From an uncultured Actinomycetota bacterium (GTDB lineage: Bacteria; Actinomycetota; Actinomycetes; Propionibacteriales; Propionibacteriaceae), in assembly GCA_963727215.1 (NCBI GenBank), contig CAVSFR010000006.1:319761-383760 (forward strand): a DNA stretch of 64,000 nt. The letters are read 5' to 3'. Position numbers and translations under genes: made by a program. Positions 8,456 through 26,512 of this stretch are shown piece after piece (positions within the stretch are counted from its first letter, which is position 1; every line of letters begins with the position of its first letter). Below the pieces are notes generated by a model. It was given only the letters and a program-made list of their open reading frames with translations. It did not search any database and was not told the DNA's origin.

Positions 8456-8493
8456 CGCACCAGTCTTCCATGCGCGACCGGTACCCTCCCTGC

Positions 8494-8934
8494 GTGCTGT
8501 ACGCCGCCTACGGGAGCAACCTCGACCCCGCGCAGATGGCCGAACGCTGCCCGCACTCGCCGCTGCGGGGCACCGGGTGGCTGCAGGGCTGGCGGGTGAC
8601 GTTCGGGGGCGAGGGCTGGGACGGGCCGCTGCCGACGGTGGTCGAGGACGTCGGCGGACACGTCTTCGTCGGCCTGTACGACGTGACCACCCCCGACGAG
8701 GCAGCGCTCGACCAGTGGGAGAGCGCCGACTCCGGGCTGTACGAGAAGGTGCGGGTGCTCGTCGAGACGCTCGAGGGCGAGCAGACGGCCTGGGTCTACG
8801 TGCTGCACGACTTCGAGGGCGGGACCCCGAGCGCCCGTACGCTCGGCATCCTCGCCGACGCGGCCGAGGCCGCCGGTGCCCCTGACGACTATCTGGTCGA
8901 GCTGCGGTCACGCCCCTGCACCAGCGGTTGGTGA
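8494..8934 (+). CDS. Gamma-glutamylcyclotransferase family protein (start 8494 or 8470)
   Basis: LYAAYGSNL motif; divergent from lpdA as in the conserved actinobacterial arrangement. Confidence 0.8.
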   Translation: MLYAAYGSNLDPAQMAERCPHSPLRGTGWLQGWRVTFGGEGWDGPLPTVVEDVGGHVFVGLYDVTTPDEAALDQWESADSGLYEKVRVLVETLEGEQTAWVYVLHDFEGGTPSARTLGILADAAEAAGAPDDYLVELRSRPCTSGW

Positions 8935-11462: not shown

Positions 11463-12449
11463 ATGACGGTCGAACCGGCGGTGCTGACCTGGATGCTCGA
11501 CACGGACCCCGCGCTGCGGTGGCAGGTAGAACGCGATCTTGCAGGCGCAGCTCCCGCGGTGTGGCAGGCCACCCGCGCGCGGATCGCCACCGAGGGCTTC
11601 GGGGCACAGCTGCTGGCCCGCCAGGACCCGGACGGCCAGTGGGCCGGCGGCGCGTACTTCCCTCGCGACTTCGACCACGAGGCCGGAGCGGAGGGTCAGC
11701 CGTACACGGCAACCACCTGGACGCTCAACACGCTGCGCGACTGGGGTCTCGACCCCGCTGCCCTCACCCACACTGCCGAACGGCTCGCTGCCAACAGCCG
11801 GTGGGAGTACGACGACCTGCCGTACTGGGGCGGCGAGGTGGACTGCTGCATCAACGGCTTCACCGTGGCCAACGGCGCCTGGCTCGGCGCCGACGTCAGC
11901 GGCCTGGCGGCCTGGTTCGGTGAGCACCAGCTGGCCGACGGCGGTTGGAACTGCGAGTGGGTCGAGGGGTCGACGCGCTCCTCGTCCCACTCCACGCTGA
12001 ACAGCCTCAAGGGGCTGCTCGCCTACGAGACCGTCACGGGCGGGTCGGACGCGCTGCGCGCCGTCCGCCACGCCGGCGAGGAGTACCTGCTGCAGCGCCG
12101 GCTGATGTACCGGCTCACCACTGGCGGGGTCCTGGGACCGTGGGTGGGCCGGTTCGCGTATCCCTTCCGCTGGGTCTGCACCGCCCTGCACGCCCTCGAC
12201 TACTTCCGGGAGGCGGCCCTGCTCGACGGCGTGCCGCCCGACCCACGGCTGGCCGAGGCCATCGAGGCCGTGCGAGCCGGCCGTCAGCCCGACGGGACCT
12301 GGCACCAGGGCCACCGCTACCCCGGCGCGGTCTGGTTCGAGGTGGACGCGCCGGTGGGCGAGCCCTCCCCGTGGCTCACCTTCTTCGCCAGCCGCGTCCT
12401 CACGTGGTGGGACGAGGCCGACCACGCTTCGTCCCGACGAGAACAATGA
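11463..12449 (+). CDS. Squalene-cyclase-like alpha/alpha barrel protein of unknown function
   Basis: QW-like repeats QDPDGQW, QLADGGWNC, RQPDGTW; no DxDD motif seen. Confidence 0.65.
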   Translation: MTVEPAVLTWMLDTDPALRWQVERDLAGAAPAVWQATRARIATEGFGAQLLARQDPDGQWAGGAYFPRDFDHEAGAEGQPYTATTWTLNTLRDWGLDPAALTHTAERLAANSRWEYDDLPYWGGEVDCCINGFTVANGAWLGADVSGLAAWFGEHQLADGGWNCEWVEGSTRSSSHSTLNSLKGLLAYETVTGGSDALRAVRHAGEEYLLQRRLMYRLTTGGVLGPWVGRFAYPFRWVCTALHALDYFREAALLDGVPPDPRLAEAIEAVRAGRQPDGTWHQGHRYPGAVWFEVDAPVGEPSPWLTFFASRVLTWWDEADHASSRREQ

Positions 12450-12491
12450 GGTCGTCAGTCTCGACCGCTCGTCACAGCCCTGGAGGCCCCG

Positions 12492-12815
12492 ATGTACCTC
12501 ATCGTCGTCAAGTTCGAGGTCAAGCCGGAATGGGTCCAGCGGTGGCCCGACCTGATCACCAGCTTCACCACCGCCACCCGGCGCGAGCCGGGCAACCTGT
12601 GGTTCGAGTGGTCGCGCAGCCTGGACAACCCGAACGAGTTCGTGCTCGTCGAGGCCTTCACCGACGACGGGGCCGGGCCGCACGTCAGCAGTGACCACTT
12701 TGCCCAGGCCATGCGCGACCTGCCGCCGGCCCTGCTCAGCACGCCCAGGATCGTCAGCCGGCAGGTCGAGGGTGACAGCTGGGGCGAGATGGGCGAGATG
12801 TCGGTCGAGGGCTGA
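12492..12815 (+). CDS. Putative quinol monooxygenase (ABM/YgiN family)
   Basis: 107 aa; TRREPGNLWFEW, FVLVEAF, PHVSSDHF pattern. Confidence 0.8.
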   Translation: MYLIVVKFEVKPEWVQRWPDLITSFTTATRREPGNLWFEWSRSLDNPNEFVLVEAFTDDGAGPHVSSDHFAQAMRDLPPALLSTPRIVSRQVEGDSWGEMGEMSVEG

Positions 12816-12822
12816 GGACGTC

Positions 12823-14169
12823 ATGACCACCACGAGCGCATCGCCGACCCGGACGGCTCGGCTCGACGTCCTGCCCTTCACCCGTGAGCACCGGCGGCTG
12901 CTGCTGGGGTCGGGTGCGGGCTGGGCGCTGGACGCCCTCGACGTCGGCCTGGTCTCGTTCGTCATCGCCGCGCTCAGCGTCCAGTGGCGGCTCTCCCCCG
13001 GCGAGGCCTCCTGGATCGCCTCGATCGGCTTCGTGGGGATGGCCATCGGGGCCGCGCTCGGCGGCCTGCTCGCGGACCGGGTCGGCCGGCGTCAGGTGTT
13101 CGCGCTGACCCTGCTGGCGTACGGGCTGCTCACGGGCGTCTCCGCCCTGTCGTGGTCCCTGGCCTCGCTGCTGGTCCTGCGCTTCCTGGTCGGACTCGGG
13201 CTGGGGGCCGAGCTCCCGGTGGCCTCCACCCTGGTCAGCGAGTTCGCCCCCGCCCGGATCCGCGGTCGGGTGGTGGTCCTGCTGGAGTCCTTCTGGGCGG
13301 TCGGCTGGACGCTCGCGGCCCTGGTCGGGTTCCTGGTGGTCCCGCGGAGCGACCACGGCTGGCGCTGGGCGCTCGCGTTGGGGGCCGTACCGGCCCTCTA
13401 CGCCGTGGTGGTCCGGCTACGGCTGCCCGAGTCCGTCCGGTTCCTGGAGTCCCGGGGCCGCCACGACGAGGCCGAACAGGTGGTCCGACGGTTCGAGGAA
13501 TCGGCCGGCGGGCGCCGGGTGCCGGCGGCGACGCAGCAGGTCGAGCCACCCGTGACCGCCCCCGCCGGGGGCAGCCGGGTGGCCGCGCTCTGGGCCCGAC
13601 CGCTGCGGCGGCGGACGGCGGCGTTGTGGGCCGTCTGGTTCTGCATCAACTTCTCCTACTACGGCGCCTTCATCTGGCTGCCCAGCCTGCTCTACGCCTC
13701 CGGCTTCTCCCTGGTCCGCTCGTTCGGCTACACCCTGGTGATCACCCTGGCCCAGCTGCCCGGCTACGCGGTCGCGGCCGTCCTGGTCGAGCGCTGGGGC
13801 CGGCGGCGCACCCTGGTCTGCGCCCTGGTGGGGTCCGCGGTCGCCGCGGCCCTGTTCGCGGGCGCGGGCAGCACCGCCGCCGTGCTCACCGCCGGCATGC
13901 TGCTGTCGTTCTTCAACCTCGGTGCCTGGGGCGCGCTCTATGCCGTGACCCCGGAGCTCTACCCGACCTGGCTGCGCGGCACCGGTGCCGGCTGGGCCGC
14001 CGGCGTGGGCCGGACCGCCTCGGTGCTGGCCCCGCTGATGGTCCCGCTGCTGCTCGGGGCAGGCGGCAGCACCCTGGTCTTCACCGTCATCGGCGCCGTG
14101 TTCGTGCTCGCCGCGCTGGCCGCCACGGCCATCCCCGAGCTGCAGGGCACCGCCCTGCAGGAGAGCTGA
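12823..14169 (+). CDS. MFS transporter (NiaP/aromatic acid-like)
   Basis: GGLLADRVGRR, RFLVGLGLGAE, VSEFAPARIRGR, ERWGRR, PELYPTWLRGTG; about 12 hydrophobic segments. Confidence 0.88.
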   Translation: MTTTSASPTRTARLDVLPFTREHRRLLLGSGAGWALDALDVGLVSFVIAALSVQWRLSPGEASWIASIGFVGMAIGAALGGLLADRVGRRQVFALTLLAYGLLTGVSALSWSLASLLVLRFLVGLGLGAELPVASTLVSEFAPARIRGRVVVLLESFWAVGWTLAALVGFLVVPRSDHGWRWALALGAVPALYAVVVRLRLPESVRFLESRGRHDEAEQVVRRFEESAGGRRVPAATQQVEPPVTAPAGGSRVAALWARPLRRRTAALWAVWFCINFSYYGAFIWLPSLLYASGFSLVRSFGYTLVITLAQLPGYAVAAVLVERWGRRRTLVCALVGSAVAAALFAGAGSTAAVLTAGMLLSFFNLGAWGALYAVTPELYPTWLRGTGAGWAAGVGRTASVLAPLMVPLLLGAGGSTLVFTVIGAVFVLAALAATAIPELQGTALQES

Positions 14170-14298
14170 GCCGCACCGCCCGCCAAACATCGCGTCCATG
14201 GAGGGTCTTGCGGCCATATTTGGTGCGCATCACCGTTTGGACGCTACGATCTCCTCTACCAGGGCCTTGGGCCAGAGAAATTCTGCGTAGGAGGATCG

Positions 14299-15660
14299 AT
14301 GGCCGAGCGGACGCATGTCTCCCCCGCCGAGGTGCACGAGGTGCTGGGGCGCCACGTCCTGACCGACGGCATGAAGCTGGTGCTGGACCTGCGACGCAGC
14401 CGCGGTTCGCGCCTGGTCGACGCGCGCGACGGCACCACCTACCTCGACCTGTACACCTTCTTCGCCTCCGCGCCGCTCGGCATCAACCCGCCCGGACTGG
14501 CCGACGACCCGACCTTCATGTCCGAGCTCAGCGAGATCGCCGCGAACAAGCCGGCCAACCCCGACATGTACTCCAGCGCGTACGCGGAGTTCGTGGACAC
14601 CTTCGTGCGGGTGCTGGGCGACCCCGCACTGCCGTACCTGTTCTTCGTCGAGGGGGGCGCGCTGGCGGTGGAGAACGCCCTCAAGGCCGCGTTCGACTGG
14701 AAGAGCCGGCACAACGAGGTCGCCGGTCGCAGTCCGGAGCTGGGCACGAAGATCCTGCACCTGACCAGGGCGTTCCACGGGCGCTCCGGCTACACGCTGT
14801 CGCTGACCAACACCGAGCCGGGCAAGACAGCCCGCTTCCCGAAGTTCGAGTGGCCACGGATCGACGTACCGGCCGTACGCTTCCCGCTGGCCGACCACCT
14901 CGCCGACGTCGAGGCGGCCGAGGAGCGCGCCCTCGAGCAGGCCCGGCAGGCCTTCGCCGACCACCCGTACGACATCGCCGCCTTCATCGCCGAGCCGATC
15001 CAGGGCGAAGGGGGCGACAACCACCTGCGCGCGGAGTTCCTCGTCCAGATGCAGGAGCTCGCGCACGCGAACGACGCGCTGGTGATCATGGACGAGGTCC
15101 AGACCGGCGTCGGCACGACCGGGACGCCGTGGGCCTACCAGCAGCTCGGCCTGCGGCCGGACCTGGTGGCGTTCTCCAAGAAGGCCCAGGTCGGCGGGGT
15201 GATGGGCGGCGGCCGGCTCGACGAGGTGCCCGAGCACGTGTTCTGCGTCTCGGGCCGGATCAACTCCACCTGGGGCGGCGGCCTGACCGACATGGTCCGG
15301 TCGCGCCGGTTGCTGGAGATCATCGAGGCCGACGGGCTGATCGAGGCCGCTGGTCCCAAGGGCGAGCACCTGCTCACCGGACTTCGCGACGTCGCGACCG
15401 CCCATCCGCAGCTGGACAACGTCCGCGGCCGTGGGCTGTTCGCCGCCTGCGACCTGGCCACGCCGGAGCTGCGCAGCGCCGTGATCGCCGACCTGCACGA
15501 CGTCGAGCACGTGATCGTGCTGCCCTGCGGGGTGCGGTCGGTCCGCTTCCGTCCGGCCCTGTCGATCACCGAGGATGAGCTGGACGAGGCCGTCGCCGCC
15601 CTCGGCCGCACCCTCGCCCGCGTGACCAGCACCAGCACCACCCAGGAGCCCCCCTCGTGA
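14299..15660 (+). CDS. lat: L-lysine 6-aminotransferase
   Basis: YLDLYTFFASAPLG, NKPANPDMY, GALAVENALKAAFDWK, EPIQGEGGD, DEVQTG, STWGG. Confidence 0.92.
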   Translation: MAERTHVSPAEVHEVLGRHVLTDGMKLVLDLRRSRGSRLVDARDGTTYLDLYTFFASAPLGINPPGLADDPTFMSELSEIAANKPANPDMYSSAYAEFVDTFVRVLGDPALPYLFFVEGGALAVENALKAAFDWKSRHNEVAGRSPELGTKILHLTRAFHGRSGYTLSLTNTEPGKTARFPKFEWPRIDVPAVRFPLADHLADVEAAEERALEQARQAFADHPYDIAAFIAEPIQGEGGDNHLRAEFLVQMQELAHANDALVIMDEVQTGVGTTGTPWAYQQLGLRPDLVAFSKKAQVGGVMGGGRLDEVPEHVFCVSGRINSTWGGGLTDMVRSRRLLEIIEADGLIEAAGPKGEHLLTGLRDVATAHPQLDNVRGRGLFAACDLATPELRSAVIADLHDVEHVIVLPCGVRSVRFRPALSITEDELDEAVAALGRTLARVTSTSTTQEPPS

Positions 15661-17198
15661 GCAGCACCACGACCTCGGTCGTCAACGGAACCGCCGTCCC
15701 CGGTGGCACGACGCGGCCCAGCACCAACCCGGCCCGCCTCGACGAGGTCGTCGGCCAGGTGGAGTTCGCCGGCGCCGACACCTTCGTGGCGGCGGCCGAG
15801 GCCGCCCACAAGGCGCAGGAGGCGTGGGCTGCGGTCCCGGCCCCGGTCCGCGGCCGGGCCATCGCCCACATCGGCCGGCTCGTCGAGGACAACGCCGAGG
15901 CGCTGGCCCTGCTGGTCACCGACGAGATCGGCAAGCCGTACGCCGAGGCGCTCGGCGAGGTGCGCGAGATCGTCGACACCTGCGACTTCTTCCTCGGCGA
16001 GGGTCGGCGGCTGTACGGGCAGACCGTGCCCAGCGAGATGAGCGACAAGCAGCTCTTCACCTTCCGCAAGCCGGTCGGCGCGGTCGCGGTGATCACCGCC
16101 GGCAACTTCCCCGTGGCCGTCCCGTCCTGGTACATCGTCCCGGCCCTGCTGGCCGGCAACACCATCGTCTGGAAGCCGGCGGAGTACTCCCCGGTGGTCA
16201 GCGCCGCCTTTTACGAGCTGTTCGTCCGCGGCGGCGGGCTGCCCGACGGCGTGTTCAACATCGTGCACGCGGACGGCCCCGCTACTCAGCTGGGCTTGAC
16301 CCGGGCGTTGGAGCACGGGCTCGTCGACAAGGTCGGCTTCACCGGCTCGTCGGCCGTCGGCCGCGAGATCGGCGCGCTGACCGGACGTCACCTGCAGACC
16401 GCCTGCCTGGAGCTCGGCGGCAAGAACCCGCTGGTCGTCACGGCCAGCGCCGACCTCGACCTCGCCGTGGAGGGTGCGCTGTTCTCCGGCTTCGGCACCG
16501 GCGGCCAGCGCTGCACCTCCCTGGGCACGGTGATCGTGCACAGCTCGGTGCACGAGGAGTTCCTGCGCCGCTTCAACGCCGCCGTGGCCGCGGCCGCCGT
16601 CGGCGACCCGCGGGAGGACGTGCTGATGGGCCCGCTGCTCGACGCGAAGTTCGCGGAGCGCTACGAGGAGTACCTGACCTGGTTGGAGCCGCACCAGCGG
16701 GTGCAGGGCGCACAGGGACGGATCACCGCCGGCAACCCCCGGGCCGGCTTCGTCGGCGACCCGGCGGCAGGCCTGTTCTATCACCCCGTGGTCGTCGACG
16801 GGGTACGGCGCGGCGATCGGATCTTCACCGAGGAGACGTTCGGGCCGCTGGTGGGGGTCACCACGTACGAGACCCTGAGCGAGGCGATCGACCTGGCCAA
16901 CGCCCCCGGGTACGGCCTGTCGTCCTCGATCTACACCACAGACCCGAAGGAGGCGTTCACCTTCCGCGACCGCATCGGCGCGGGCATGGTGAGCATCAAC
17001 AACTCCACCTCGGGTGCGGAGGCGCACCTGCCCTTCGGCGGCAACGGGAAGTCCGGCAACGGCTCGCGGCAGTCGGGGATCTGGGTACTGGACCAGTTCA
17101 CGCGGTGGCAGTCGGTCAACTGGGACTACTCCGGTCGGCTGCAGAAGGCCCAGATGGACACCGCCCAGCTGGTCCCGGACACCACCTTCCGGCTGTAG
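15657..17198 (+). CDS. pcd: Aldehyde dehydrogenase, likely piperideine-6-carboxylate / 2-aminoadipate semialdehyde dehydrogenase
   Basis: EIGKPYAEALGEVREIVD, TAGNFPVAV, LELGGKN, GQRCTS, EETFGP; GTGA-coupled to lat. Confidence 0.75.
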   Translation: MSSTTTSVVNGTAVPGGTTRPSTNPARLDEVVGQVEFAGADTFVAAAEAAHKAQEAWAAVPAPVRGRAIAHIGRLVEDNAEALALLVTDEIGKPYAEALGEVREIVDTCDFFLGEGRRLYGQTVPSEMSDKQLFTFRKPVGAVAVITAGNFPVAVPSWYIVPALLAGNTIVWKPAEYSPVVSAAFYELFVRGGGLPDGVFNIVHADGPATQLGLTRALEHGLVDKVGFTGSSAVGREIGALTGRHLQTACLELGGKNPLVVTASADLDLAVEGALFSGFGTGGQRCTSLGTVIVHSSVHEEFLRRFNAAVAAAAVGDPREDVLMGPLLDAKFAERYEEYLTWLEPHQRVQGAQGRITAGNPRAGFVGDPAAGLFYHPVVVDGVRRGDRIFTEETFGPLVGVTTYETLSEAIDLANAPGYGLSSSIYTTDPKEAFTFRDRIGAGMVSINNSTSGAEAHLPFGGNGKSGNGSRQSGIWVLDQFTRWQSVNWDYSGRLQKAQMDTAQLVPDTTFRL

Positions 17199-17216
17199 GC
17201 CAGGCCCCGCACCGCG

Positions 17217-19418
17217 ATGCATCCCCTCGACGCCTTCACCCGCCGCTCCCTCTCCGACCTGTCAGCGCCGGTGGTTGCCCCGGCGACCACGGACGCTGAC
17301 AACTCGGTGGCGGGCGGGTGGTGGGAGGCGTTGTGGGGGGCGCAGGTGACCAGCCGGCACCTGGACTTCGTGGCCCGCGAGCTGCAGGCCGAGGGCGAGG
17401 GCTTCTACACGATCGGCTCGGCCGGGCACGAGGCGAACGCCCTGGTGGCGGCCGCGCTGCGGCCGAGCGACCCGGCCTTGCTGCACTACCGCTCCGGCGC
17501 CTTCTACGTGGCGCGCGCGGCGCAGGTCCCCGGCAGCACGCCGGTGCGCGACGTGCTGCAGGGGCTGATGGGGCTGGCCGACGAGCCGATCGCGGGCGGC
17601 CGGCACAAGGTGTTCGGCCACGCCGGTCTGGGCGTGATCCCGCAGACCTCGACGATCTCCTCCCACCTGCCGCGCGCGGTCGGCCTCGCCCTGGCCCTGC
17701 ACCGGGCCTACCGGCTGGGCGTCGCCTGCCCCTGGCCCGCCGACGCCGTGGTGGTCTGCTCCTTCGGTGACGCCTCGGCCAACCACTCGACCGCGGCCGG
17801 GGCCGTCAACACCGCCCTGAACGCCGCGTACCGGGGGCTGCCGGTCCCGCTGCTGCTGGTCTGCGAGGACAACGGCTACGGCATCTCGGTGCCGACGCCG
17901 GGCGGCTGGATCGAGGCCGCGTACGGCTCCCGGCCCGGTCTGGACTACGTGGCCGCGGACAGCTCCGACCCCGCCACCGCCCGCGCCGCCGCCGCCGCTG
18001 CGGTCGAGACCGTGCGGACGGCGCGCCGGCCCGTCTTCCTGCACCTGCGGACGGTTCGCTTCCTCGGCCACGCCGGCAGCGACGCGGAGGTCACCTACCG
18101 GACACCACGCACGATCGAGTCCGACTACGGTCGCGACCCCCTGCTGGCCACCGCCCGGGTGCTGGCCGTCGCCGGCCTGTCCGGCGCCGAGCTGCTGCGG
18201 CGCTACCTGGAGCTCCGCGCCGAGGTGGACGCCGAGGTCGTACGGCTGCGCGGCGGCGCCCGGCTCACCTCGGCCCCCCAGGTGATGGCCCCGCTCGCCC
18301 CGCGCCGTCCCGACCTGGTCGCCGAGCACGTCCGGAGCGCCTCGACGGCGGCATCGGAGGTCGCGTCGGAAACTCGTGGCGCCACCAGCAGGACGCTCGC
18401 GGAGTCCATCAACGCCACCTTGGCCGAGCTGCTGGCCGCGGACCGGCGAGTGCTGGTGTTCGGCGAGGACGTCGGCATCAAGGGCGGGGTGTACGGGGTG
18501 ACCGGCGGACTGGCGCGCCGCTTCGGCAGCGCCCGCGTCTTCGACACCGTGCTGGACGAGCAGTCGATCCTCGGCCTGGCTCTCGGCGCTGGGCTGGCCG
18601 GACTGGTCCCGGTGCCCGAGATCCAGTACCTGGCGTACCTGCACAACGCCGAGGACCAGCTGCGCGGCGAGGCCGCCACCCTGTCGTTCTTCTCCTCGGG
18701 AGCGTTCCGCAACCCGCTGGTGGTGCGGGTCGCCGGCCTGGCCTACCAACGCGGCTTCGGCGGCCACTTCCACAACGACAACGCCCTCGGCGTGCTCCGC
18801 GACATCCCCGGTCTGGTGCTCGCCTGCCCGAGCCGGGGCGACGACGCGGCCGCCATGCTGCGGACCTGCGTCGCAGCCGCGGCCACCGACGGCACGGTCG
18901 CGGTGTTCCTCGAGCCCATCGCGCTCTACCACCGCCGCGACCTGCACGAGGCCGGCGACGGCGGCTGGCTGACCGGCGACGAGGCCGGTCACGTACCCCT
19001 CAGCTCCGCCCGGCTGCACCCGGCACCCGGCACCCAGACCCCGGACCTGGTGCTGGTCACCTTCGGCAACGGCGTCCCGATGAGCCTGCGGGTGGCCCGT
19101 CGGCTGGCGGGTCAGGGTGTGGCCGCGGCCGTGCTGGACCTGCGCTGGCTGAGCCCGCTGCCGGTCGCGGACGTCCTCGCTGCGGCCTCGACCGCCGGCC
19201 GGGTGCTGGTGGTCGACGAGACCCGGCACAGTGGTGGCGTCGGCGAGGGCGTCGTGACCGCGCTGGTCGAGCACGGCTTCTCCGGACCGGTGGCCCGGGT
19301 GAGCAGCGCCGACTCGCTGGTCCCGCTGGGTGCGGCCGCCCAGCACGTGCTGCTGGGCGAGGACGAGATCGAACGTGCCGCCATCGCGGTGGCGGCCAAG
19401 GAGAGGGAGAGACGATGA
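17217..19418 (+). CDS. Fused alpha/beta TPP-dependent 2-oxoacid dehydrogenase E1
   Basis: YTIGSAGHE, TPP motif FGDAS...EDNGYGIS, GHAGSD, beta-domain FGEDVGIKGGVYGVT, FDTVLDEQ, EIQYLAYLHNA. Confidence 0.88.
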   Translation: MHPLDAFTRRSLSDLSAPVVAPATTDADNSVAGGWWEALWGAQVTSRHLDFVARELQAEGEGFYTIGSAGHEANALVAAALRPSDPALLHYRSGAFYVARAAQVPGSTPVRDVLQGLMGLADEPIAGGRHKVFGHAGLGVIPQTSTISSHLPRAVGLALALHRAYRLGVACPWPADAVVVCSFGDASANHSTAAGAVNTALNAAYRGLPVPLLLVCEDNGYGISVPTPGGWIEAAYGSRPGLDYVAADSSDPATARAAAAAAVETVRTARRPVFLHLRTVRFLGHAGSDAEVTYRTPRTIESDYGRDPLLATARVLAVAGLSGAELLRRYLELRAEVDAEVVRLRGGARLTSAPQVMAPLAPRRPDLVAEHVRSASTAASEVASETRGATSRTLAESINATLAELLAADRRVLVFGEDVGIKGGVYGVTGGLARRFGSARVFDTVLDEQSILGLALGAGLAGLVPVPEIQYLAYLHNAEDQLRGEAATLSFFSSGAFRNPLVVRVAGLAYQRGFGGHFHNDNALGVLRDIPGLVLACPSRGDDAAAMLRTCVAAAATDGTVAVFLEPIALYHRRDLHEAGDGGWLTGDEAGHVPLSSARLHPAPGTQTPDLVLVTFGNGVPMSLRVARRLAGQGVAAAVLDLRWLSPLPVADVLAAASTAGRVLVVDETRHSGGVGEGVVTALVEHGFSGPVARVSSADSLVPLGAAAQHVLLGEDEIERAAIAVAAKERERR
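17254..17307. repeat. 54-bp palindromic element (CAGCG subtype), in frame inside the E1 CDS
   Basis: CCGACCTGTCAGCGC-CGGTGGTTGCCCCGGCGACCACGG-ACGCTGACAACTCGG; same length, arms and interior motif as 55042-55095. Confidence 0.85.
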
Positions 19419-20611
19419 CCGGCACGGCACCCCTGGAGCTGCTCGGGATCGAGCACCTGCTCAGCGAGGACGAGCGCGACGTGCAGGCCGCCGTTCGCGA
19501 CTTCGTGACCGGGCGGGTCAAGCCCAACGTGGCCGGCTGGTTCGAGCGCGGCGAGATCGACCTCGGCCTGATGAAGGAGGCCGGCTCGCTCGGCCTGCTG
19601 GGGATGCACCTGACCGGATACGGCTGCGCCGGCACCAACGCGGTCTCCTACGGCCTGGCCTGCCTGGAGCTCGAGGCCGGCGACTCCGGCGTCCGCAGCA
19701 TGGTCTCGGTCCAGGGCTCACTGGCCATGTACGCCATCCACGCCTTCGGCAGCGAGGAGCAGAAGCAGACCTGGCTGCCGGGCATGGCCGCGGGGGAGCT
19801 CGTCGGCTGCTTCGGCCTGACCGAGCCCGACCACGGCTCGAACCCGGCCGGGATGCGCACCCGGGCCCGCCGCGACGGTGACGGCTGGCGGCTGGACGGC
19901 GCCAAGATGTGGATCACCAACGGCTCGGTCGCCGACGTGGCCGTGGTCTGGGCGCGGGTGGAAGGTGATGGGGCCGACCCGGACGCGGGGGGCAAGGGCA
20001 TCCGCGGGTTCGTCGTCCCCACCCGGACGCCCGGCTTCTCCGCCCCCACCATCGGGCACAAGCTCTCGTTGCGCGCCTCGGTCACCTCCGAGCTGGTGCT
20101 GGAGGACGTCCGGTTGCCCGCCGACGCCGTGCTGCCCGGGGTCACCGGGATGCGCGGTCCCCTGTCCTGCCTGAACGAGGCGCGCTTCGGGATCGTCTTC
20201 GGGGCCCTCGGCGCGGCCCGCGACTGCCTCGAGTCCGCCCTCGACTACGCCGCCACCCGCGAGGTCTTCGACCGGCCGCTCGCGTCGTTCCAGCTCACCC
20301 AGGCCAAGCTCGCCGACATGGCGCTGGAGCTGCAGAAGGGTTTCCTGCTGGCCCTGCACCTCGGCCGGCTCAAGGACGCCGGCCAGCTACAGCCGCGGCA
20401 GATCAGCCTCGGCAAGCTCAACAACGTGCGCGAGGCCCTGGCCATCGCCCGCGAGTGCCGCACGATCCTGGGCGCCAACGGCATCACGCTCGACTACCCG
20501 GTGATGCGTCACGCCAACAACCTCGAGTCCGTCCTGACCTACGAGGGCACCTCCGAGGTGCATCAGCTGGTCATCGGCCAGGCCCTCACCGGCGAGAACG
20601 CCTTCAGCTGA
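19415..20611 (+). CDS. gcdH: Acyl-CoA dehydrogenase, glutaryl-CoA dehydrogenase-like
   Basis: ELEAGDSGVRSMVSVQGSL, FGLTEPDHGSNP, KMWITNG, CLNEARFGI, NLESVLTYEGTSEVH. Confidence 0.82.
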   Translation: MTGTAPLELLGIEHLLSEDERDVQAAVRDFVTGRVKPNVAGWFERGEIDLGLMKEAGSLGLLGMHLTGYGCAGTNAVSYGLACLELEAGDSGVRSMVSVQGSLAMYAIHAFGSEEQKQTWLPGMAAGELVGCFGLTEPDHGSNPAGMRTRARRDGDGWRLDGAKMWITNGSVADVAVVWARVEGDGADPDAGGKGIRGFVVPTRTPGFSAPTIGHKLSLRASVTSELVLEDVRLPADAVLPGVTGMRGPLSCLNEARFGIVFGALGAARDCLESALDYAATREVFDRPLASFQLTQAKLADMALELQKGFLLALHLGRLKDAGQLQPRQISLGKLNNVREALAIARECRTILGANGITLDYPVMRHANNLESVLTYEGTSEVHQLVIGQALTGENAFS

Positions 20612-20640
20612 GCCTGACCCGGACGCATAGGATCGCAGCC

Positions 20641-21633
20641 ATGACCGCCGCGACGACGAAGCCTCCGGTCGCCGAACCGGCTGCTGCGGTCCGGCTGCCC
20701 TCGCATCTGCTGGACGCGACGGTGGACGAGTCGGCGCTGCGTCGATTCCTGGCCGGCCTGCCCGGCATCGACCCGGTCGGGCTGGAGCGACGGGCCGCGC
20801 AGCTGGCCACCCGCTCGCTGAAGCAGGAGACCAAGCGTGGGCTGATCGACCTCGCCCTCTCGATGGTCGACCTGACCACCCTGGAGGGCGCAGACACGCC
20901 CGCCAAGGTGCGGAACCTGGCCCGCAAGGCACTGCTCCCGGACCCGGACCATCCCGACACGCCCCGTCCCGCGGCCGTCTGCGTCTACCCCGACCTGGCC
21001 AGGGTGGCGGTGGCGGAGCTTCGCGGCAGCGGAGTCCGGGTGGCCGCGGTGGCCACGGCCTTCCCGTCGGGCCGCTCCACCCTGGCGGTCAAGCTCGCCG
21101 ACGTCGCCCTGGCGGTGGAGTCGGGCGCGGACGAGGTCGACATGGTGATCGACCGCGGCGCCTTCCTGTCCGGGCACTACGGCGTCGTCCTCGAGCAGAT
21201 CCAGGCGGTCAAGCAGGCCTGCGGCTCCGCCCGGCTGAAGGTCATCCTCGAGACCGGCGAGCTCGGCACCTACGACCACGTCCGCCGGGCGGCCTGGCTC
21301 GCCCTGCTGGCCGGCGGCGACTTCGTCAAGACCTCGACCGGCAAGGTCTCCCCCGCGGCGACGCTGCCGGTGACCCAGGTGCTGCTGCAGGCCGTCCGCG
21401 ACTGGTACGCGGCCACCGGCGAGCAGCGCGGGGTGAAGCCGGCCGGCGGGATCCGCACGGCCAAGGACGCGCTGCGGCACCTGGTGGCCGTCCGCGAGGT
21501 CGCCGGCCCGGAGTGGCTGGACCCCCACTGGTTCCGCTTCGGCGCCTCGTCGGTGCTCAACGACCTGGTCCGGCAGCGCCGGGCCCAGGCTGATGGCCAC
21601 TACACCGGCACCGACCACGTGACCCTCGACTGA
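20641..21633 (+). CDS. deoC: Deoxyribose-phosphate aldolase
   Basis: DLTTLEG, VATAFPSG, EVDMVIDRG, LKVILETGEL, FVKTSTGK, GVKPAGGIRT, RFGASS. Confidence 0.93.
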   Translation: MTAATTKPPVAEPAAAVRLPSHLLDATVDESALRRFLAGLPGIDPVGLERRAAQLATRSLKQETKRGLIDLALSMVDLTTLEGADTPAKVRNLARKALLPDPDHPDTPRPAAVCVYPDLARVAVAELRGSGVRVAAVATAFPSGRSTLAVKLADVALAVESGADEVDMVIDRGAFLSGHYGVVLEQIQAVKQACGSARLKVILETGELGTYDHVRRAAWLALLAGGDFVKTSTGKVSPAATLPVTQVLLQAVRDWYAATGEQRGVKPAGGIRTAKDALRHLVAVREVAGPEWLDPHWFRFGASSVLNDLVRQRRAQADGHYTGTDHVTLD

Positions 21634-21665
21634 CAGGTGTCCAGACCCATGAGCAGACGAGACCG

Positions 21666-23153
21666 ATGAGCACGAACCTGGCCGACCCCGCCGCTTGGGA
21701 CTACGCCCCTGCGCCCGAGTCACGGGCGATCGGCCACCTCAAGGACCGCTACCTCCCCTTCGTCGACGGCGTCTTCGTCGAGGGCGGCGGCCCCGACCTG
21801 GAGAGCATCGAGCCCGGGACGGGCGAGCGCCTGGCTTCGGTCTCCACCGTGGACGCCGCGGGCATCGACCACGCCGTGGCGGTGGCGCGGCGGGCCCAGA
21901 CCGAGGTCTGGGGCCGGATGCGTGGGGCGGAGCGCGGGACCTATCTGTTCCGGATCGCCCGCGGGATCGCCGAGCGCGCCCGCGAGCTGGCCGTGGTGGA
22001 GACCCTCGACAACGGCAAGCCCATCCGCGAGAGCCGGGACTTCGACGTGCCCGCCGCCGCGCAGCACTTCTTCTCCCACGCCGGCTGGGCCGACAAGCTG
22101 CAGCACCTGGGCCTCGGGCCGGTGCCGCAGCCGTTGGGCGTCGCGGGCCAGGTCATCCCGTGGAACTTCCCGCTGCTGATGGCGGCCTGGAAGATCGCGC
22201 CCGCGCTCGCGGCCGGCAACACCGTGGTGATCAAGCCGGCCGAGACCACGTCGCTCTCGATCTTGGTCCTGGCCGAGATCATCGCCGATGCCGGCCTGCC
22301 GCCGGGGGTGGTCAACATCATCCCGGGGGCCGGTGACGTGGGCGCCCAGCTGCTGGCCCACCCGGGCCTGGACAAGGTGGCCTTCACCGGATCGACCTCG
22401 GTCGGGCGCGGCATCGCCCGATCCCTCGCCGGGACCGGCCGTCGGGTCACCCTCGAGCTGGGCGGCAAGGGCGCCAACATCGTGTTCGACGACGCCGCGC
22501 TCGACCAGGCCGTCGAGGGTGTGGTGGACGGGATCTTCTTCAACCAGGGCCAGGTCTGCTGCGCCGGCTCCCGGCTGCTGCTGCAGGAGCCGATCGCCGA
22601 GGAGTTCCTGGCCCGGCTCAAGCGGCGGGTGGCCACGCTGCGGGTCGGGGACCCGATGGACAAGAACACCGACGTCGGCGCGGTCAACTCCGCAACCCAG
22701 CTCGAGCGGATCCAGACCCTGCTCGCGGCCGGCGAGGCCGAGGGAGCGCACAGCTGGACGGCACCCGGATCGCTGCCGAGCGGCGGCTACTACGTTGCTC
22801 CCACCATCTTCACCGCGGCGACCGCCTCGATGCGGGTGGCCCGGGAGGAGATCTTCGGTCCGGTGCTGACCACGATGACCTTCCGGACGCCGGACGAGGC
22901 CGTCGCCAAGGCCAACAACACTCCGTACGGGCTGTCGGCCGGCGTCTGGACCGAGAAGGGCTCCCGCGCCATGGCCATGGCCGCCGCGCTGCGGGCGGGC
23001 ACCGTCTGGGACAACAGCTTCAACCGCTTCGACCCGACCGCGAGCTTCGGCGGTTACGGCGAGTCCGGCTACGGCCGCGAAGGCGGACCCTCGGGGATGG
23101 CGGCCTACCTGAGGCCCGACGAGCGACCCTACGACGAGGAGTCGAGCCGATGA
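21666..23153 (+). CDS. Aldehyde dehydrogenase (catalytic subunit)
   Basis: ETLDNGKP, IPWNFP, FTGST, LELGGK, NQGQVCCAG, EEIFGP, GREGG. Confidence 0.92.
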   Translation: MSTNLADPAAWDYAPAPESRAIGHLKDRYLPFVDGVFVEGGGPDLESIEPGTGERLASVSTVDAAGIDHAVAVARRAQTEVWGRMRGAERGTYLFRIARGIAERARELAVVETLDNGKPIRESRDFDVPAAAQHFFSHAGWADKLQHLGLGPVPQPLGVAGQVIPWNFPLLMAAWKIAPALAAGNTVVIKPAETTSLSILVLAEIIADAGLPPGVVNIIPGAGDVGAQLLAHPGLDKVAFTGSTSVGRGIARSLAGTGRRVTLELGGKGANIVFDDAALDQAVEGVVDGIFFNQGQVCCAGSRLLLQEPIAEEFLARLKRRVATLRVGDPMDKNTDVGAVNSATQLERIQTLLAAGEAEGAHSWTAPGSLPSGGYYVAPTIFTAATASMRVAREEIFGPVLTTMTFRTPDEAVAKANNTPYGLSAGVWTEKGSRAMAMAAALRAGTVWDNSFNRFDPTASFGGYGESGYGREGGPSGMAAYLRPDERPYDEESSR

Positions 23154-24037
23154 GCCGTCCCGCGGTCACCAAGACCTACAAGCTCTACGTCGGCGGGGCC
23201 TTCCCCCGCTCGGAGTCGGGCCGGACCTATCCGGTGCACACCGCCGACGGCGCGTTCTGGGCCAACGCGGCGCAGGGCTCCCGCAAGGACGCCCGGGATG
23301 CCGTCACCGCGGCCCGCGCGGGCAGCCGCGGCTGGTCGGCCGCCACCCCGTACCTGCGCGGTCAGGTCATCTACCGGGCGGCGGAGATGCTCGAGGGCCG
23401 CCGCGCCCAGTTCGTCGAGCTCCTCGGGCTGGGCTCCGGAGCGGACGCGGCCACGGCCGGCGCCGAGGTCGACGCCGCCGTCGACCGCCTCGTGCACTAC
23501 GCCGGCTGGACCGACAAGCTCAGCCCCGTCCTCGGCAGCGCCAACGCCGTCTCCGGCCCCTACTTCTCCTACTCCGCCCCCGAGCCGATGGGCGTGGTCG
23601 CCGTCCTGGCCCCGGCCGGTGCGCCGCTGCTCGGCCTGGTCTCGGTCCTCGCGCCGCTGATGGCCACCGGCAACGCGTCCGTGGTGCTCGTCCCCGCGGC
23701 CGACGCGTGCACGGCGATCACCTTCGCCGAGGTTCTCGCGACCTCCGACGTCCCGGCCGGGGTCGTCAACCTGCTCACCGGACGACCGGCCGAGATGGCC
23801 CCGCACCTGGCGGCCCACGGCGACGTCGCCGCACTGGACCTCACCGGCGCTGACCCCGAGCAGCGCGTCGAGCTGGAGCAGGCGGCGGCCGAGACCCTCA
23901 AGCGCGTCTACGCCCCCGCCACACCGGTGGACCTCGGGGCCGATCCGGGCCTGGCGCGGCTCCGGGCCTTCACCGAGATCAAGACGGTCTGGCACCCCAC
24001 CGGGGCACTGTCACTGGCCGGCGGCGGATCGTACTGA
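23150..24037 (+). CDS. Short aldehyde dehydrogenase-family protein lacking the catalytic domain
   Basis: 295 aa; NAD-binding-like region and C-terminal TEIKTVWHP arm, no ELGGK or catalytic Cys; ATGA overlap. Confidence 0.82.
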   Translation: MSRPAVTKTYKLYVGGAFPRSESGRTYPVHTADGAFWANAAQGSRKDARDAVTAARAGSRGWSAATPYLRGQVIYRAAEMLEGRRAQFVELLGLGSGADAATAGAEVDAAVDRLVHYAGWTDKLSPVLGSANAVSGPYFSYSAPEPMGVVAVLAPAGAPLLGLVSVLAPLMATGNASVVLVPAADACTAITFAEVLATSDVPAGVVNLLTGRPAEMAPHLAAHGDVAALDLTGADPEQRVELEQAAAETLKRVYAPATPVDLGADPGLARLRAFTEIKTVWHPTGALSLAGGGSY

Positions 24038-24038
24038 C

Positions 24039-24692
24039 GTGAGTCGGATGGTGCTGCTCGCCGGAGCCTCGGGCAGCGGCAAGTCACGGCTGGCCGCGGC
24101 CGCGGGCTGCCCGCGCCTCAACCTGGACGACTTCTACCGCGACCTCGACCATCCCGGAATGCCACGTCTTCGATCTGGCGGAAAGGCCCTGGGCACCGTC
24201 GACTGGGACCATCCGGGCTCGTGGAACCTCGAGGCAGCGCTGGCTGCGGCCGTCGCCTTGTGCCGCACGGGCCGCACGGACGTCCCCGTCTACGACATCG
24301 CCCGCAGCCGGCGGTACGGCGAGCAGCAGGTCGAGCTCGGAGGGCACGCCGTCTTCGTCGCCGAGGGCGTGTTCGCCCCCGAGCTGGTCGGCCCGGCTAG
24401 CGCCGCCGGGCTCGACGTGACCGCGCTCTACCTCGACCGTCCGCGGACCGCGAACCTGCTCCGGCGCTTCCTCCGCGACGTCGCCGAGCGCCGCAAGCCG
24501 CTGAGGTTGCTCGTGCGGCGGGGCTGGGCGCTCTGGCGGGAGGAGCCGACGATCCGGGCCCGGGCGCTGGCCGCGGGCTGCCGTCCCGTCTCGATGGGCT
24601 CGGCCCTGGCCGAGCTGCGGCCGGCTGAGGCGGCGCCTTCTCGACGGGGCCCCGGGGCCGGCAGAGCGGACCAGAAGACCGTCGACCTCTAA
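24039..24692 (+). CDS. Uridine kinase-like P-loop NTPase
   Basis: GASGSGKS Walker A, LDDFY, DWDHP, VAEGVF. Confidence 0.75.
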   Translation: MSRMVLLAGASGSGKSRLAAAAGCPRLNLDDFYRDLDHPGMPRLRSGGKALGTVDWDHPGSWNLEAALAAAVALCRTGRTDVPVYDIARSRRYGEQQVELGGHAVFVAEGVFAPELVGPASAAGLDVTALYLDRPRTANLLRRFLRDVAERRKPLRLLVRRGWALWREEPTIRARALAAGCRPVSMGSALAELRPAEAAPSRRGPGAGRADQKTVDL

Positions 24693-24868
24693 ATGTCGTG
24701 AATTGTCCACGTGAACGCAGAAATCAAGAGCAAATGGCATTGCCAGGGGTTTGGCGAGCATTGTTGATCTACCGTAATGTCACACGTGCTGAGGCGGCGC
24801 GCTGGCGGTTCCAGCGCAACACCTCGGCGCCGCCACGATAATTCCGCACGCCGAGGGGAAACCGTCAG

Positions 24869-26512
24869 ATGCCGCAAGACGAGTCCACACCTGCCGGCCG
24901 GGAGGCCGCGCGGCTGGGGCGTCTCGTCGAGTTCAACAGGTCCATCGTCGCTGAGCTCTCGCTCTCCATGGTGCTGCGTCGGGTGGTCGAGGCGGCAAGG
25001 GTGCTCGCGGACGCCCGCTTCGCCGCGCTCGGCGTCATCGGCGCCGACGGGGGCATCGAGCAGTTCGTCCACGAGGGCATGGACGAGGCCACCGTGCTCG
25101 CCATCGGCGACCTGCCCAAGGGGCGGGGTCTGCTCGGAGCAGTGAACGAGACCGCGGCTCCGATCCGGCTCCACTCGGTGACCGACGACGCGCGCAGCTC
25201 TGGGGTGCCGCTGGAGCACCCGCCCCTCACGGCCTTCCTGGGCGTCCCGGTCCGCACCGGTCGCACGATCTTCGGCAACCTCTACCTCGCCAACCCGATT
25301 CGCGGCGGCGCCTTCACCGTCGAGGACGAGAACCTGATGCGCTCGCTCGCGACCACCGCCGGAGTCGCCATCGCGAACGCCCGACTGCATACCGAGGCGA
25401 TGCAGCGGCACGAGTGGCTGCAGGTCTCCTTCGAGGTCAGCCAGCGGTTGATGGCCGAGGACGAGGACAGCATCACCATGCTGAGCGACCTCGCCCACTC
25501 GGCCCTGCGGGTGACGCGCTCGGACGGTGTCGTCGTGACCTTGCCTGTCCCTCGCTCGCCCGGCACCCTGGAGATCGTCGCGACCAGCGGCGACCGGGTC
25601 GACGAGCTCCGCGGGATCCGCTTCGACGCCGCCGGCAGCTTCGCCGGGGAGGCGATGGAGCGCGGCGAGCCTCTGGTGGTGAGAGACGCCCGGGAACGGT
25701 TGAAGGGCAGCGTGAACCTGCCGCTGCCGATGCTGATCAACCACATGATGGTCATCCCCCTGCTGGGCCGGGACACGGTGCGCGGCGCGATCACGGTCGG
25801 CCGGACGGCCGACGTCCCCTTCTCCGAAGCCGACAAGGAGCTGGCCCAGGCGTTCGCCGTGCAGGCCACCGTGGCGTTGGAAATGGCCGACGCCCGCGCA
25901 GACCAGAACCGGATCGCCCTGCTCGAGGAGCGGGCCCGGACCGCGCACAACCTGCACGACAACGTGGTCCAGCGGCTTTTCGCCGCCGGGCTGACCATCC
26001 AGGGGGCGGCGAGCCTCTCCTGCGACCCGGCCGTCCGCGAGCAGCTGGCCGCAGCGGTGGAAAACCTCGACGGGACCATCCGGACGCTACGAAACTCGAT
26101 CTTCGACATCCAGCCGGAGACGGCGGCCGTAGCAGCGTTTCCCAGCCGCATCCTCGGCGTCGTCGTCGAGCTGACGGCGACCCTCGGCTTCACTCCGGCG
26201 CTCGAGCTGGACGGTCCGGTCGAGGATGTGGCCGAGGGGGACATGGCCGACGCAGCCGAGTCGGCCGTGCGGGCCGCGCTGACCGAGGTGGCCCGGCACG
26301 CCTGTGCCACGCGGGCACGCGTGGAGGTCTCTTCCGACGGTCGTGTCCTGACCATCGTGGTGACCGACGACGGGTCCGTGCCGCTGGCTGAGCGACCGCG
26401 GCAAGGACGCGACGAGCTGCAGGAGCAGGCGGAGACCCGCTCCGGGGCGATGGCGGTCACCGACTGCGAGAGCGGCGGCGTCCAGCTCCTCTGGACCGCC
26501 CCGCTGGTCTGA
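24869..26512 (+). CDS. DosS/DosT-like double-GAF HisKA_3 sensor protein with degenerate ATPase domain
   Basis: GAF GVIG..GLLG..HPPLTAFLGVPV..GNLYL; H-box ERARTAHNLHDNVVQRLFA; C-terminal LWTAPL. Confidence 0.85.
   Translation: MPQDESTPAGREAARLGRLVEFNRSIVAELSLSMVLRRVVEAARVLADARFAALGVIGADGGIEQFVHEGMDEATVLAIGDLPKGRGLLGAVNETAAPIRLHSVTDDARSSGVPLEHPPLTAFLGVPVRTGRTIFGNLYLANPIRGGAFTVEDENLMRSLATTAGVAIANARLHTEAMQRHEWLQVSFEVSQRLMAEDEDSITMLSDLAHSALRVTRSDGVVVTLPVPRSPGTLEIVATSGDRVDELRGIRFDAAGSFAGEAMERGEPLVVRDARERLKGSVNLPLPMLINHMMVIPLLGRDTVRGAITVGRTADVPFSEADKELAQAFAVQATVALEMADARADQNRIALLEERARTAHNLHDNVVQRLFAAGLTIQGAASLSCDPAVREQLAAAVENLDGTIRTLRNSIFDIQPETAAVAAFPSRILGVVVELTATLGFTPALELDGPVEDVAEGDMADAAESAVRAALTEVARHACATRARVEVSSDGRVLTIVVTDDGSVPLAERPRQGRDELQEQAETRSGAMAVTDCESGGVQLLWTAPLV

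Follow-up and report, generated by a model that had tools for sequence, protein, structure and literature searches.

A fused alpha/beta E1 encoded among lysine-catabolic genes is a candidate 2-oxoadipate dehydrogenase component in Actinomycetota

We analyzed a 64,000-nucleotide stretch of contig CAVSFR010000006.1 (hereafter the window) from an uncultured member of the Propionibacteriaceae, in which four adjoining genes would together carry lysine to crotonyl-CoA: lat, encoding an L-lysine 6-transaminase (LAT); a gene for an aldehyde dehydrogenase (ALDH); a gene for a 2-oxoacid dehydrogenase E1 component whose alpha and beta portions are fused in one chain; and gcdH, encoding a glutaryl-CoA dehydrogenase (GcdH). 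By protein similarity, the genome falls within the Microlunatus/Friedmanniella group of that family. The fused E1 is best read as the 2-oxoadipate dehydrogenase E1 of this operon, served by E2 and E3 components encoded elsewhere, and we put the probability of that reading at roughly two in three. It is favored because the E1 gene travels with lysine-catabolic genes across the Actinomycetota, and also because E1 and gcdH are translationally coupled through an ATGA overlap and gcdH is the sole copy in the genome. A preliminary description of this DNA had already placed the E1 at the step from 2-oxoadipate to glutaryl-CoA; co-occurrence, neighborhood and active-site features strongly support that placement, which is still one made from sequence.

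As proposed, the pathway would begin with Lat, which takes the 6-amino group off lysine, an activity shown at the family level (lysine and 2-oxoglutarate give glutamate and 2-aminoadipate 6-semialdehyde, the latter in equilibrium with piperideine-6-carboxylate, P6C). The ALDH, which resembles the Thermus thermophilus enzyme ALDHTt, would oxidize 2-aminoadipate semialdehyde or P6C to 2-aminoadipate, and an enzyme encoded elsewhere would convert 2-aminoadipate to 2-oxoadipate: probably a GabT-like transaminase in this genome, and in other genomes perhaps the glutamate-dehydrogenase-like (Glu-DH-like) member of the Glu/Leu/Phe/Val-dehydrogenase family (ELFV) that clusters with E1. The fused E1 is predicted to bind 2-oxoadipate at its thiamine diphosphate, to decarboxylate it, and to reductively glutarylate the lipoyl group of a borrowed E2, which would in turn free glutaryl-CoA. 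Finally, GcdH, translationally coupled to E1, would convert glutaryl-CoA to crotonyl-CoA, a reaction that is likewise shown at the family level.

All four open reading frames were confirmed on the plus strand, with third-position GC of 0.92-0.96 in a window of 72% GC, and their junctions read as first described. The lat gene (14299..15660) and the ALDH gene (15657..17198) overlap at GTGA (15657-15660), where the TGA stop of lat is shared with the GTG start of the ALDH gene; the TAG stop of the latter ends at 17198 and is separated by an 18-nt gap from the E1 ATG at 17217; and the E1 gene (17217..19418; 733 aa) overlaps gcdH (19415..20611) at ATGA (19415-19418), the E1 stop running into the gcdH ATG. 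At least six further genomes or metagenome-assembled genomes (MAGs; loci L073, L075 and L077-L080) share this four-gene order, indicating that the arrangement is not due to chance.

The two outer genes have clear family assignments. The lat product passes the L-lysine 6-transaminase model TIGR03251 (672.4 bits against a cut-off of 520.8). The acyl-CoA dehydrogenase encoded by gcdH matches the glutaryl-CoA dehydrogenases 3sf6 (600.7 bits) and 3swo (593 bits), which we take to be mycobacterial, as well as human GCDH, 1siq (355 bits). It carries Arg94 (in GVRS) and Glu377 (in YEGT), the counterparts of the carboxylate-binding and catalytic residues, respectively, of the human enzyme. Its sequence thus predicts a decarboxylating glutaryl-CoA dehydrogenase (glutaryl-CoA to crotonyl-CoA and CO2, a function shown at the family level), and the next best acyl-CoA dehydrogenase in the genome is only 33% identical to it. 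NCBIfam appears to have no model for the decarboxylating enzyme; among its GcdH-named models, the best match was to that of the non-decarboxylating Acd, whose cut-off of 470 bits was far from reached (187.8 bits).

The ALDH is less conventional. It matches PF00171; its best NCBIfam match is the curated P6C dehydrogenase model (NF050084 pip_6_carb_DH, of the ALDH7 type), which it fails at 347.6 bits against a cut-off of 730, and it is 41% identical to a true P6C dehydrogenase (Pcd) encoded elsewhere in the same genome. The closest solved structure is that of Thermus thermophilus ALDHTt, which has a C-terminal arm (6fjx, 502 bits; PMC6127216) and has been termed non-substrate-specific (PMC8699947). 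Orthologs of the window enzyme (here ALDHX; at least 60% identity) occur in 24 of 38 genomes with the fused E1 and in 8 of 42 controls (p = 8e-5). In all 17 sampled LAT-positive relatives outside family f5, and in the window, ALDHX adjoins lat, even in genomes whose E1 is on a different contig, and almost none of those 17 genomes shows an ALDH7-type Pcd at E <= 1e-70; in family f5, which we take to be Mycobacteriales, lat is partnered instead by an ALDH7-type enzyme. Further, ALDHX and Pcd interchange in the slot beside a DAO-family oxidase across clusters. Because of its constant pairing with lat, we assign ALDHX a Pcd-like job, as a putative alternative 2-aminoadipate-semialdehyde/P6C dehydrogenase yielding 2-aminoadipate. 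The label "pcd-like" given to it earlier therefore holds loosely, for the job that its context implies, but not for its family, which is an ALDHTt-like sister subfamily of the curated one. ALDHX was regularly found beside lat or a pipecolate-oxidase-like DAO (the window, L073, L077-L080, L086-L092, L116, L122, L127 and L134), which suggests that 2-aminoadipate semialdehyde/P6C may be the natural substrate of the ALDHTt-like subfamily.

The distribution of the fused E1 was examined in an evenly drawn sample of 401 genomes from the Actinomycetota. Its family is present in 39 and LAT in 26, with both in 22 (Fisher p = 7e-22), so that E1 is found in 22/26 LAT-positive but only 17/375 LAT-negative genomes. 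At the level of taxonomic families, all seven with LAT also hold E1, which occurs in about 12 of about 71 families (chance ~6e-7). GcdH is much commoner than E1 (151/401). Comparative genomics largely bears out the reading given in the preliminary description.

Neighborhoods were compared at about 120 E1 loci, 38 from the sampled genomes and 82 from named genomes in which E1 is 57-81% identical. At about 32 of the 82, E1 lies beside lat, an aminoadipate-semialdehyde dehydrogenase gene, a pipecolate-oxidase-like DAO gene, a gene for a Glu-DH-like enzyme, or gcdH. The lysine-catabolic company takes several forms: (i) lat-ALDH-E1-gcdH, in Propionibacteriaceae, Jiangellaceae and other MAGs, with a lat-E1-gcdH operon without the ALDH gene in a Propionibacteriaceae MAG (L074); (ii) DAO, ALDH and E1, often with an ornithine-cyclodeaminase-family (OCD) gene and a Glu-DH-like ELFV gene, in Kribbella, Actinomadura, Saccharopolyspora and Spirillospora; (iii) DAO, true Pcd and E1 (L101, L105 and L148), and a saccharopine-dehydrogenase-family gene adjoining E1 (L101 and L144); and (iv) gcdH-E1 in Mycobacterium, at some loci with genes for a family-III CoA-transferase, a thioesterase and an arginase-family protein. 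On the E1 tree, linkage to lysine genes requires at least 8-14 independent changes.

At five Mycobacterium loci (L093, L113, L130, L153 and L154), the genes encode a HAD hydrolase, an arginase-family protein, E1, a family-III CoA-transferase and acyl-CoA thioesterase II, and L043 has this Mycobacterium-type string plus gcdH and an amidohydrolase gene; the string may be a branch, for glutarate or a guanidino acid, that leads into the same node. In addition, a 380-aa ELFV protein recurs between DAO/ALDH and E1 (L089:5847-6989, L134, L107, L091 and L148), for which the best model is haloarchaeal GdhB, at 212 bits against a cut-off of 620. We regard the clustered Glu-DH-like ELFV as a candidate NAD(P)-dependent 2-aminoadipate dehydrogenase acting in place of aminoadipate transaminase. 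In the genome under study, the best match to the class-III 2-aminoadipate transaminase model NF049976 is GabT-like (369 bits against a cut-off of 650), and a GabT-like class-III enzyme such as that at C10:98647-99885 would be the leading candidate for the aminoadipate transaminase.

As judged from its domains, the E1 is an alpha-beta fusion of the heterotetramer class (the pyruvate dehydrogenase [PDH] and branched-chain 2-oxoacid dehydrogenase [BCKDH] type). The chain contains, in order, PF00676 (E1_dh, 87.6 bits), PF02779 (Transket_pyr, 78.6 bits) and PF02780 (Transketolase_C, 73.2 bits), and its nearest solved structures are PDH and BCKDH E1 subunits, confirming the earlier statement that it differs in class from DHTKD1 and the 2-oxoglutarate dehydrogenase (OGDH) type. 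It shares with BCKDH E1b (1um9, 1dtw and 2bp7) and Geobacillus PDH E1 (1w85) the fold class, domain order, thiamine motif and catalytic alphaHis, betaGlu and betaHis. It differs from them in being a single fused chain of limited similarity, whose alpha part scores only 48-50 bits and whose beta part ~150 bits, in never being co-encoded with an E2, in its basic pocket loop, and in a distribution that follows lysine 6-transaminase. No NCBIfam model is reached at its cut-off: the best matches are PDH E1-beta models, at 137.8 and 133.2 bits where 454 and 321 are required, and an alpha model, at 81.7 bits where 411 is required. The protein appears in source annotations as "2-oxoisovalerate dehydrogenase E1 component" or as "thiamine pyrophosphate-dependent enzyme". 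Canonical split E1alpha genes are co-resident in 36/39 of the E1-positive genomes and score 230-309 bits on PF00676, as against 65-95 for the fused E1; the genome under study likewise has a separate E1alpha-E1beta-E2 operon, on contig C10. Because 36 of 39 carriers and this genome have separate canonical E1 genes, the fused E1 is, on this comparison, not the cell's BCKDH or PDH.

The fused E1 retains the residues needed to activate thiamine and for reductive acylation. The thiamine diphosphate motif is a variant, GDAS...CEDNG, near-invariant across 136 members. Also conserved are alphaHis285, which aligns with His291 of human BCKDHA, and betaGlu448 and betaHis519, which align with Glu59 and His128 of 1w85_B (Geobacillus PDH E1-beta). 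In PDH and BCKDH E1, both histidines contribute to the reductive acylation of lipoyl-E2, and their conservation argues that the fused E1 would still pass its acyl group to a lipoyl-E2.

The substrate pocket departs, in sequence alignment, from the hydrophobic branched-chain pocket of BCKDH. In human E1b-alpha, that pocket is formed by Phe85, Met87, Tyr113, Met146 and Leu164 (PMC12655727). Four of these five are kept in kind, as hydrophobic or aromatic residues (Tyr64, Ile66, Tyr91 and Ile147), but the Met146 loop is shortened to a near-invariant Arg129-His130-Lys131, and Gln112 is replaced by His90. Across the 136 family members, H71, H90, H130, K131, H150, R/K153 and H190 are near-invariant. 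Such a pocket would accommodate a substrate that bears a carboxylate at its far end; 2-oxoadipate, with its three methylenes and distal carboxylate, would suit a hydrophobic channel that closes in basic residues.

Two further features of the E1 sequence were noted. An imperfect 54-nt palindrome (17254..17307, plus strand) lies in frame at E1 codons 13-30, within the variable N-terminal tail. We considered it as a sign that the E1 start had been misplaced, and rejected this since two relatives, Friedmanniella luteola (L073) and the Propionibacteriaceae MAG of L074, conserve in their E1s the peptide that it encodes, LSAPVVAPATTDADNS; the ATG at 17217 was therefore kept. This conservation suggests that the palindrome is either old or tolerated as coding sequence. 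The distant family representatives P0132, P0136 and P0162 are 33-42% identical to the E1 and have uninformative neighborhoods; the contig of one distant representative looks eukaryotic, its E1 gene being flanked by mitochondrial-carrier genes.

The components missing from the operon would come from elsewhere. As the preliminary description had it, no E2, E3 or aminoadipate aminotransferase gene is found in the operon, and no homolog of E2, ELFV dehydrogenase, DAO or CoA-transferase is encoded anywhere in the 64-kb window. The genome encodes three E2-type proteins, namely a two-lipoyl-domain E2 on contig C9 (C9:432766-434709) beside a true E3 (C9:431296-432672), an E2 of the BCKDH type on C10 (C10:274887-276566), and a 1338-aa OdhA-type fusion on C5, the last being its only OGDH-like protein. 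A second true E3 is encoded on C4 (C4:309898-311280), bringing the total to two. Precedents for such borrowing exist. The animal complex of DHTKD1 (E1a), DLST (E2o) and DLD (E3) catalyzes the same reaction as is proposed here, at the same place in lysine catabolism just before GCDH, and DHTKD1 has no E2 of its own, E2o and E3 being shared with another complex (PMC9367764, PMC8146983). DHTKD1 is, however, an E1 of the homodimeric OGDH-like class, whereas the E1 described here is a fused alpha and beta chain of the PDH/BCKDH class, and the two are analogs rather than orthologs. Within the same phylum, actinobacterial OdhA/Kgd depends on the lipoylated E2p of a PDH-ODH supercomplex (PMC10415282), a precedent for a 2-oxoacid decarboxylase without a lipoyl domain using the E2 of another complex; OdhA, in contrast to the fused E1, includes an acyltransferase domain.

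Several observations weigh against the E1 being a 2-oxoadipate dehydrogenase. First, no E2 homolog lies within 10 kb of E1 at any of the ~120 loci, which is unusual for an E1; co-encoding with a cognate lipoyl-E2 was seen neither at these loci nor in the 64-kb window. Second, more than half of the E1 loci have unrelated, lineage-specific neighbors, such as hom-thrC-E1-thrB in family f16 and a pentose-phosphate operon in Nocardia; many genomes of this kind still carry lat-ALDH elsewhere. Third, 17 E1-positive genomes have no LAT, and in 6 of 38 E1-positive relatives (five of them LAT-negative) a search at E <= 1e-70 shows no ALDH of either the ALDHX or the Pcd type. Fourth, a close GcdH ortholog is present in just 19 of the 39 E1-positive genomes (12/14 in the close clade, 7/24 in the distant clade), making the link of E1 to GcdH looser than that to LAT. 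Fifth, the pocket mapping comes only from a sequence alignment to human BCKDHA, its numbering matching the residues given in PMC12655727. Finally, the pathway looks redundant in this genome, given the presence of both true Pcd and HglS. In family f16, a family outside the Actinomycetes (L054, L055, L058, L063 and L064), the gene order in full is hom, thrC, E1, thrB, transaldolase, rho, with the lat-ALDH pair elsewhere.

HglS (DUF1338, PF07063) converts 2-oxoadipate to D-2-hydroxyglutarate (10.1101/2020.01.30.927905; 10.1101/450254). It would share its substrate with the fused E1, and it occupies the same slot in aminoadipate-route clusters, beside lat or DAO and Pcd. Unlike E1, it is an unrelated Fe(II) oxygenase whose product heads to 2-oxoglutarate rather than to glutaryl-CoA and GcdH. 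In the genome under study, HglS is encoded at C8:158481-159662 (443 bits) and true Pcd at C8:156719-158248 (NF050084, 796 bits against a cut-off of 730), so that two 2-oxoadipate routes coexist here. On the minus strand, they form another lysine/pipecolate cluster with a DAO-family oxidase gene (C8:156719-161726); upstream of it, a Glu-DH-like ELFV gene looks degraded, with an in-frame stop near 161337-161345 and a match to residues 140-376 only of its homologs, the N-terminal half being gone. HglS in this DAO and Pcd cluster fills the slot that E1 holds in L101, L105 and L148, which looks like one 2-oxoadipate enzyme displacing another. The anti-correlation with DUF1338 that had been predicted thus fails in this genome, although the two are complementary among other LAT genomes: of the four with LAT and no E1, G069 and G139 have HglS adjoining lat, and the congeneric genomes G111 and G152 carry E1 but no HglS. 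In LAT genomes without E1, HglS appears to be the alternative solution. HglS is rarer than E1 in the sample, and its 5 occurrences among 401 genomes are too few for a statistical test.

The absence of a clustered E2 could also mean that the E1 is a non-oxidative 2-oxoadipate decarboxylase forming glutarate semialdehyde, which an ALDH, that of the operon or another, would oxidize to glutarate and a CoA-transferase or ligase would activate to glutaryl-CoA for GcdH. This scheme, which we consider unlikely, would account for the ALDH gene immediately upstream of E1 at many loci, for the mycobacterial loci with a family-III CoA-transferase and thioesterase (and, in L043, GcdH), and for the presence of GcdH in all eight of the E1-negative control genomes that carry ALDHX; moreover, the true Pcd encoded elsewhere in this genome could free ALDHX for another aldehyde. 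However, ALDHX is tied to lat rather than to E1 and would therefore be needed as the aminoadipate-semialdehyde dehydrogenase, a role that argues against its oxidizing glutarate semialdehyde from a stand-alone decarboxylase. L074 retains lat-E1-gcdH with no ALDH gene in the operon, and the search of the genome under study gave no good candidate for a glutarate CoA-transferase, the best match being 29% identical over half of the query. Further, alphaHis285, betaHis519 and the entire beta C-terminal domain are conserved; their part in PDH and BCKDH E1 is to acylate the lipoyl group and to dock E2 rather than to decarboxylate.

A less probable explanation is that the E1 acts on some other 2-oxo acid, namely 2-oxo-6-aminohexanoate or its cyclic form piperideine-2-carboxylate (P2C), 2-oxopimelate, or 2-oxoglutarate as a backup to OdhA, or that its acyl group goes to an unconventional acceptor in place of a lipoyl-E2. 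The OCD/mu-crystallin genes in several E1 clusters could be taken this way, as the OCD family includes P2C reductases and cyclodeaminases, and so could the half of E1 carriers without a close GcdH. An amino-bearing substrate is disfavored by the basic pocket residues, and the tightest couplings of E1 are to gcdH (the ATGA overlap here) and to enzymes forming 2-aminoadipate. As for another acceptor, no FabD-like gene was found at any actinobacterial E1 locus searched, and the genome has one PF00698 protein. This sole PF00698 (FabD-type) acyltransferase is part of an open frame of 431 aa at C5:264165-265460, of which the last ~100 residues resemble, by eye, a biotinyl/lipoyl-type barrel (GGIVVEWLVENGDPVSPGQPLLRL).

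Least probable of all is that the annotation is correct and the E1 is a branched-chain or general 2-oxoacid dehydrogenase component whose place in a lysine operon is incidental or a side role: the annotated name, the nearest structures, the four hydrophobic or aromatic pocket positions and the housekeeping neighbors at many loci would fit such an enzyme, but it reaches no PDH or BCKDH model cut-off, coexists with canonical split E1 genes, is far from universal and tracks LAT, has never been seen with an E2b, and carries near-invariant His and Lys substitutions in its pocket.

The four genes sit within a longer series. Third-position GC traces a continuous plus-strand gene run from a purine-nucleoside phosphorylase gene through gcdH to the deoC and ALDH genes beyond it, beginning with purine-nucleoside phosphorylase, a phosphomutase, a gene without known identity, an ABM protein, an MFS transporter and lat. 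The ABM-family (antibiotic biosynthesis monooxygenase-like) small protein (12492..12815, plus strand; PF03992, 63.6 bits) forms part of the upstream context. The MFS transporter, of the aromatic-acid/H+ symporter type (12823..14169, plus strand; PF00083 and PF07690), scores 272 bits on TIGR00895, below cut-off; its frame was taken from third-position GC, and its start is uncertain (12691, 12772 or 12823). It may import a carboxylate. The ABM-MFS-lat order is also found in F. luteola. The intergenic region before lat (14170..14298, plus strand; 129 nt) has a strong GGAGGA 6 nt ahead of the lat ATG, so that the operon promoter and operator probably lie in this spacer; a scan of 12300-24900 for sigma-70 promoters and terminators gave no useful match, the sigma-70 consensus being uninformative at 72% GC.

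Directly after gcdH come deoC, a full ALDH gene and a 295-aa N-terminal ALDH fragment (20641-24037, plus strand). The same string follows gcdH in related MAGs (L074:13499-16854; L075) but is missing from that position in F. luteola, suggesting that the lat-gcdH and deoC blocks are separate modules that happen to abut. The sole E3-like gene in the window (7034-8911, minus strand) was considered as a dedicated E3 and rejected: its product belongs with the NAD(P)H-quinone dehydrogenases of the LpdA type (NF005883, 743 bits) rather than with the lipoamide dehydrogenases (TIGR01350, 332.8 bits against a cut-off of 408.8). An LpdA-like gene holds the same position in F. luteola, beside a Sir2 gene.

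A full-text literature search, outside which most subscription journals lie, returned only the animal DHTKD1 complex and HglS as 2-oxoadipate routes, and no description of a bacterial 2-oxoadipate dehydrogenase of the BCKDH class. What would be new here is a known reaction, at a known pathway position, carried out by the other class of E1, in fused form and without an E2 of its own. A broader proposal, for which we judge the odds to be somewhat short of even, is that the whole fused E1 family, which occurs in about 10% of the Actinomycetota genomes sampled and has relatives in other phyla as well as on the eukaryotic-looking contig, constitutes a third, so far unrecognized solution to 2-oxoadipate disposal beside DHTKD1 and HglS, one never provided with its own E2 and either docking as an extra E1 on the lipoylated core of another complex or using a new type of acceptor. 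On this proposal, two more enzymes would come to light in these clusters: an aminoadipate-semialdehyde dehydrogenase of the ALDHTt type and, in place of the missing transaminase, a Glu-DH-like 2-aminoadipate dehydrogenase.

Past 2-oxoadipate, the bacterial lysine 6-transaminase route has so far had one characterized answer, HglS. If the fused E1 is indeed a 2-oxoadipate dehydrogenase component, then the present labels "2-oxoisovalerate dehydrogenase E1" and "thiamine pyrophosphate-dependent enzyme" are wrong for a large family, and lysine and pipecolate catabolism would become reconstructable to crotonyl-CoA in many Actinomycetota, among them species of Nocardia, Rhodococcus, Mycobacterium, Kribbella and Nonomuraea. 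For metabolic engineering, it could also offer a compact bacterial pathway that leads to glutaryl-CoA from lysine or 2-oxoadipate. The family would provide a clean case of one reaction having been invented in both E1 classes, and would raise the testable question of how an E1 without its own E2 finds a lipoyl partner.

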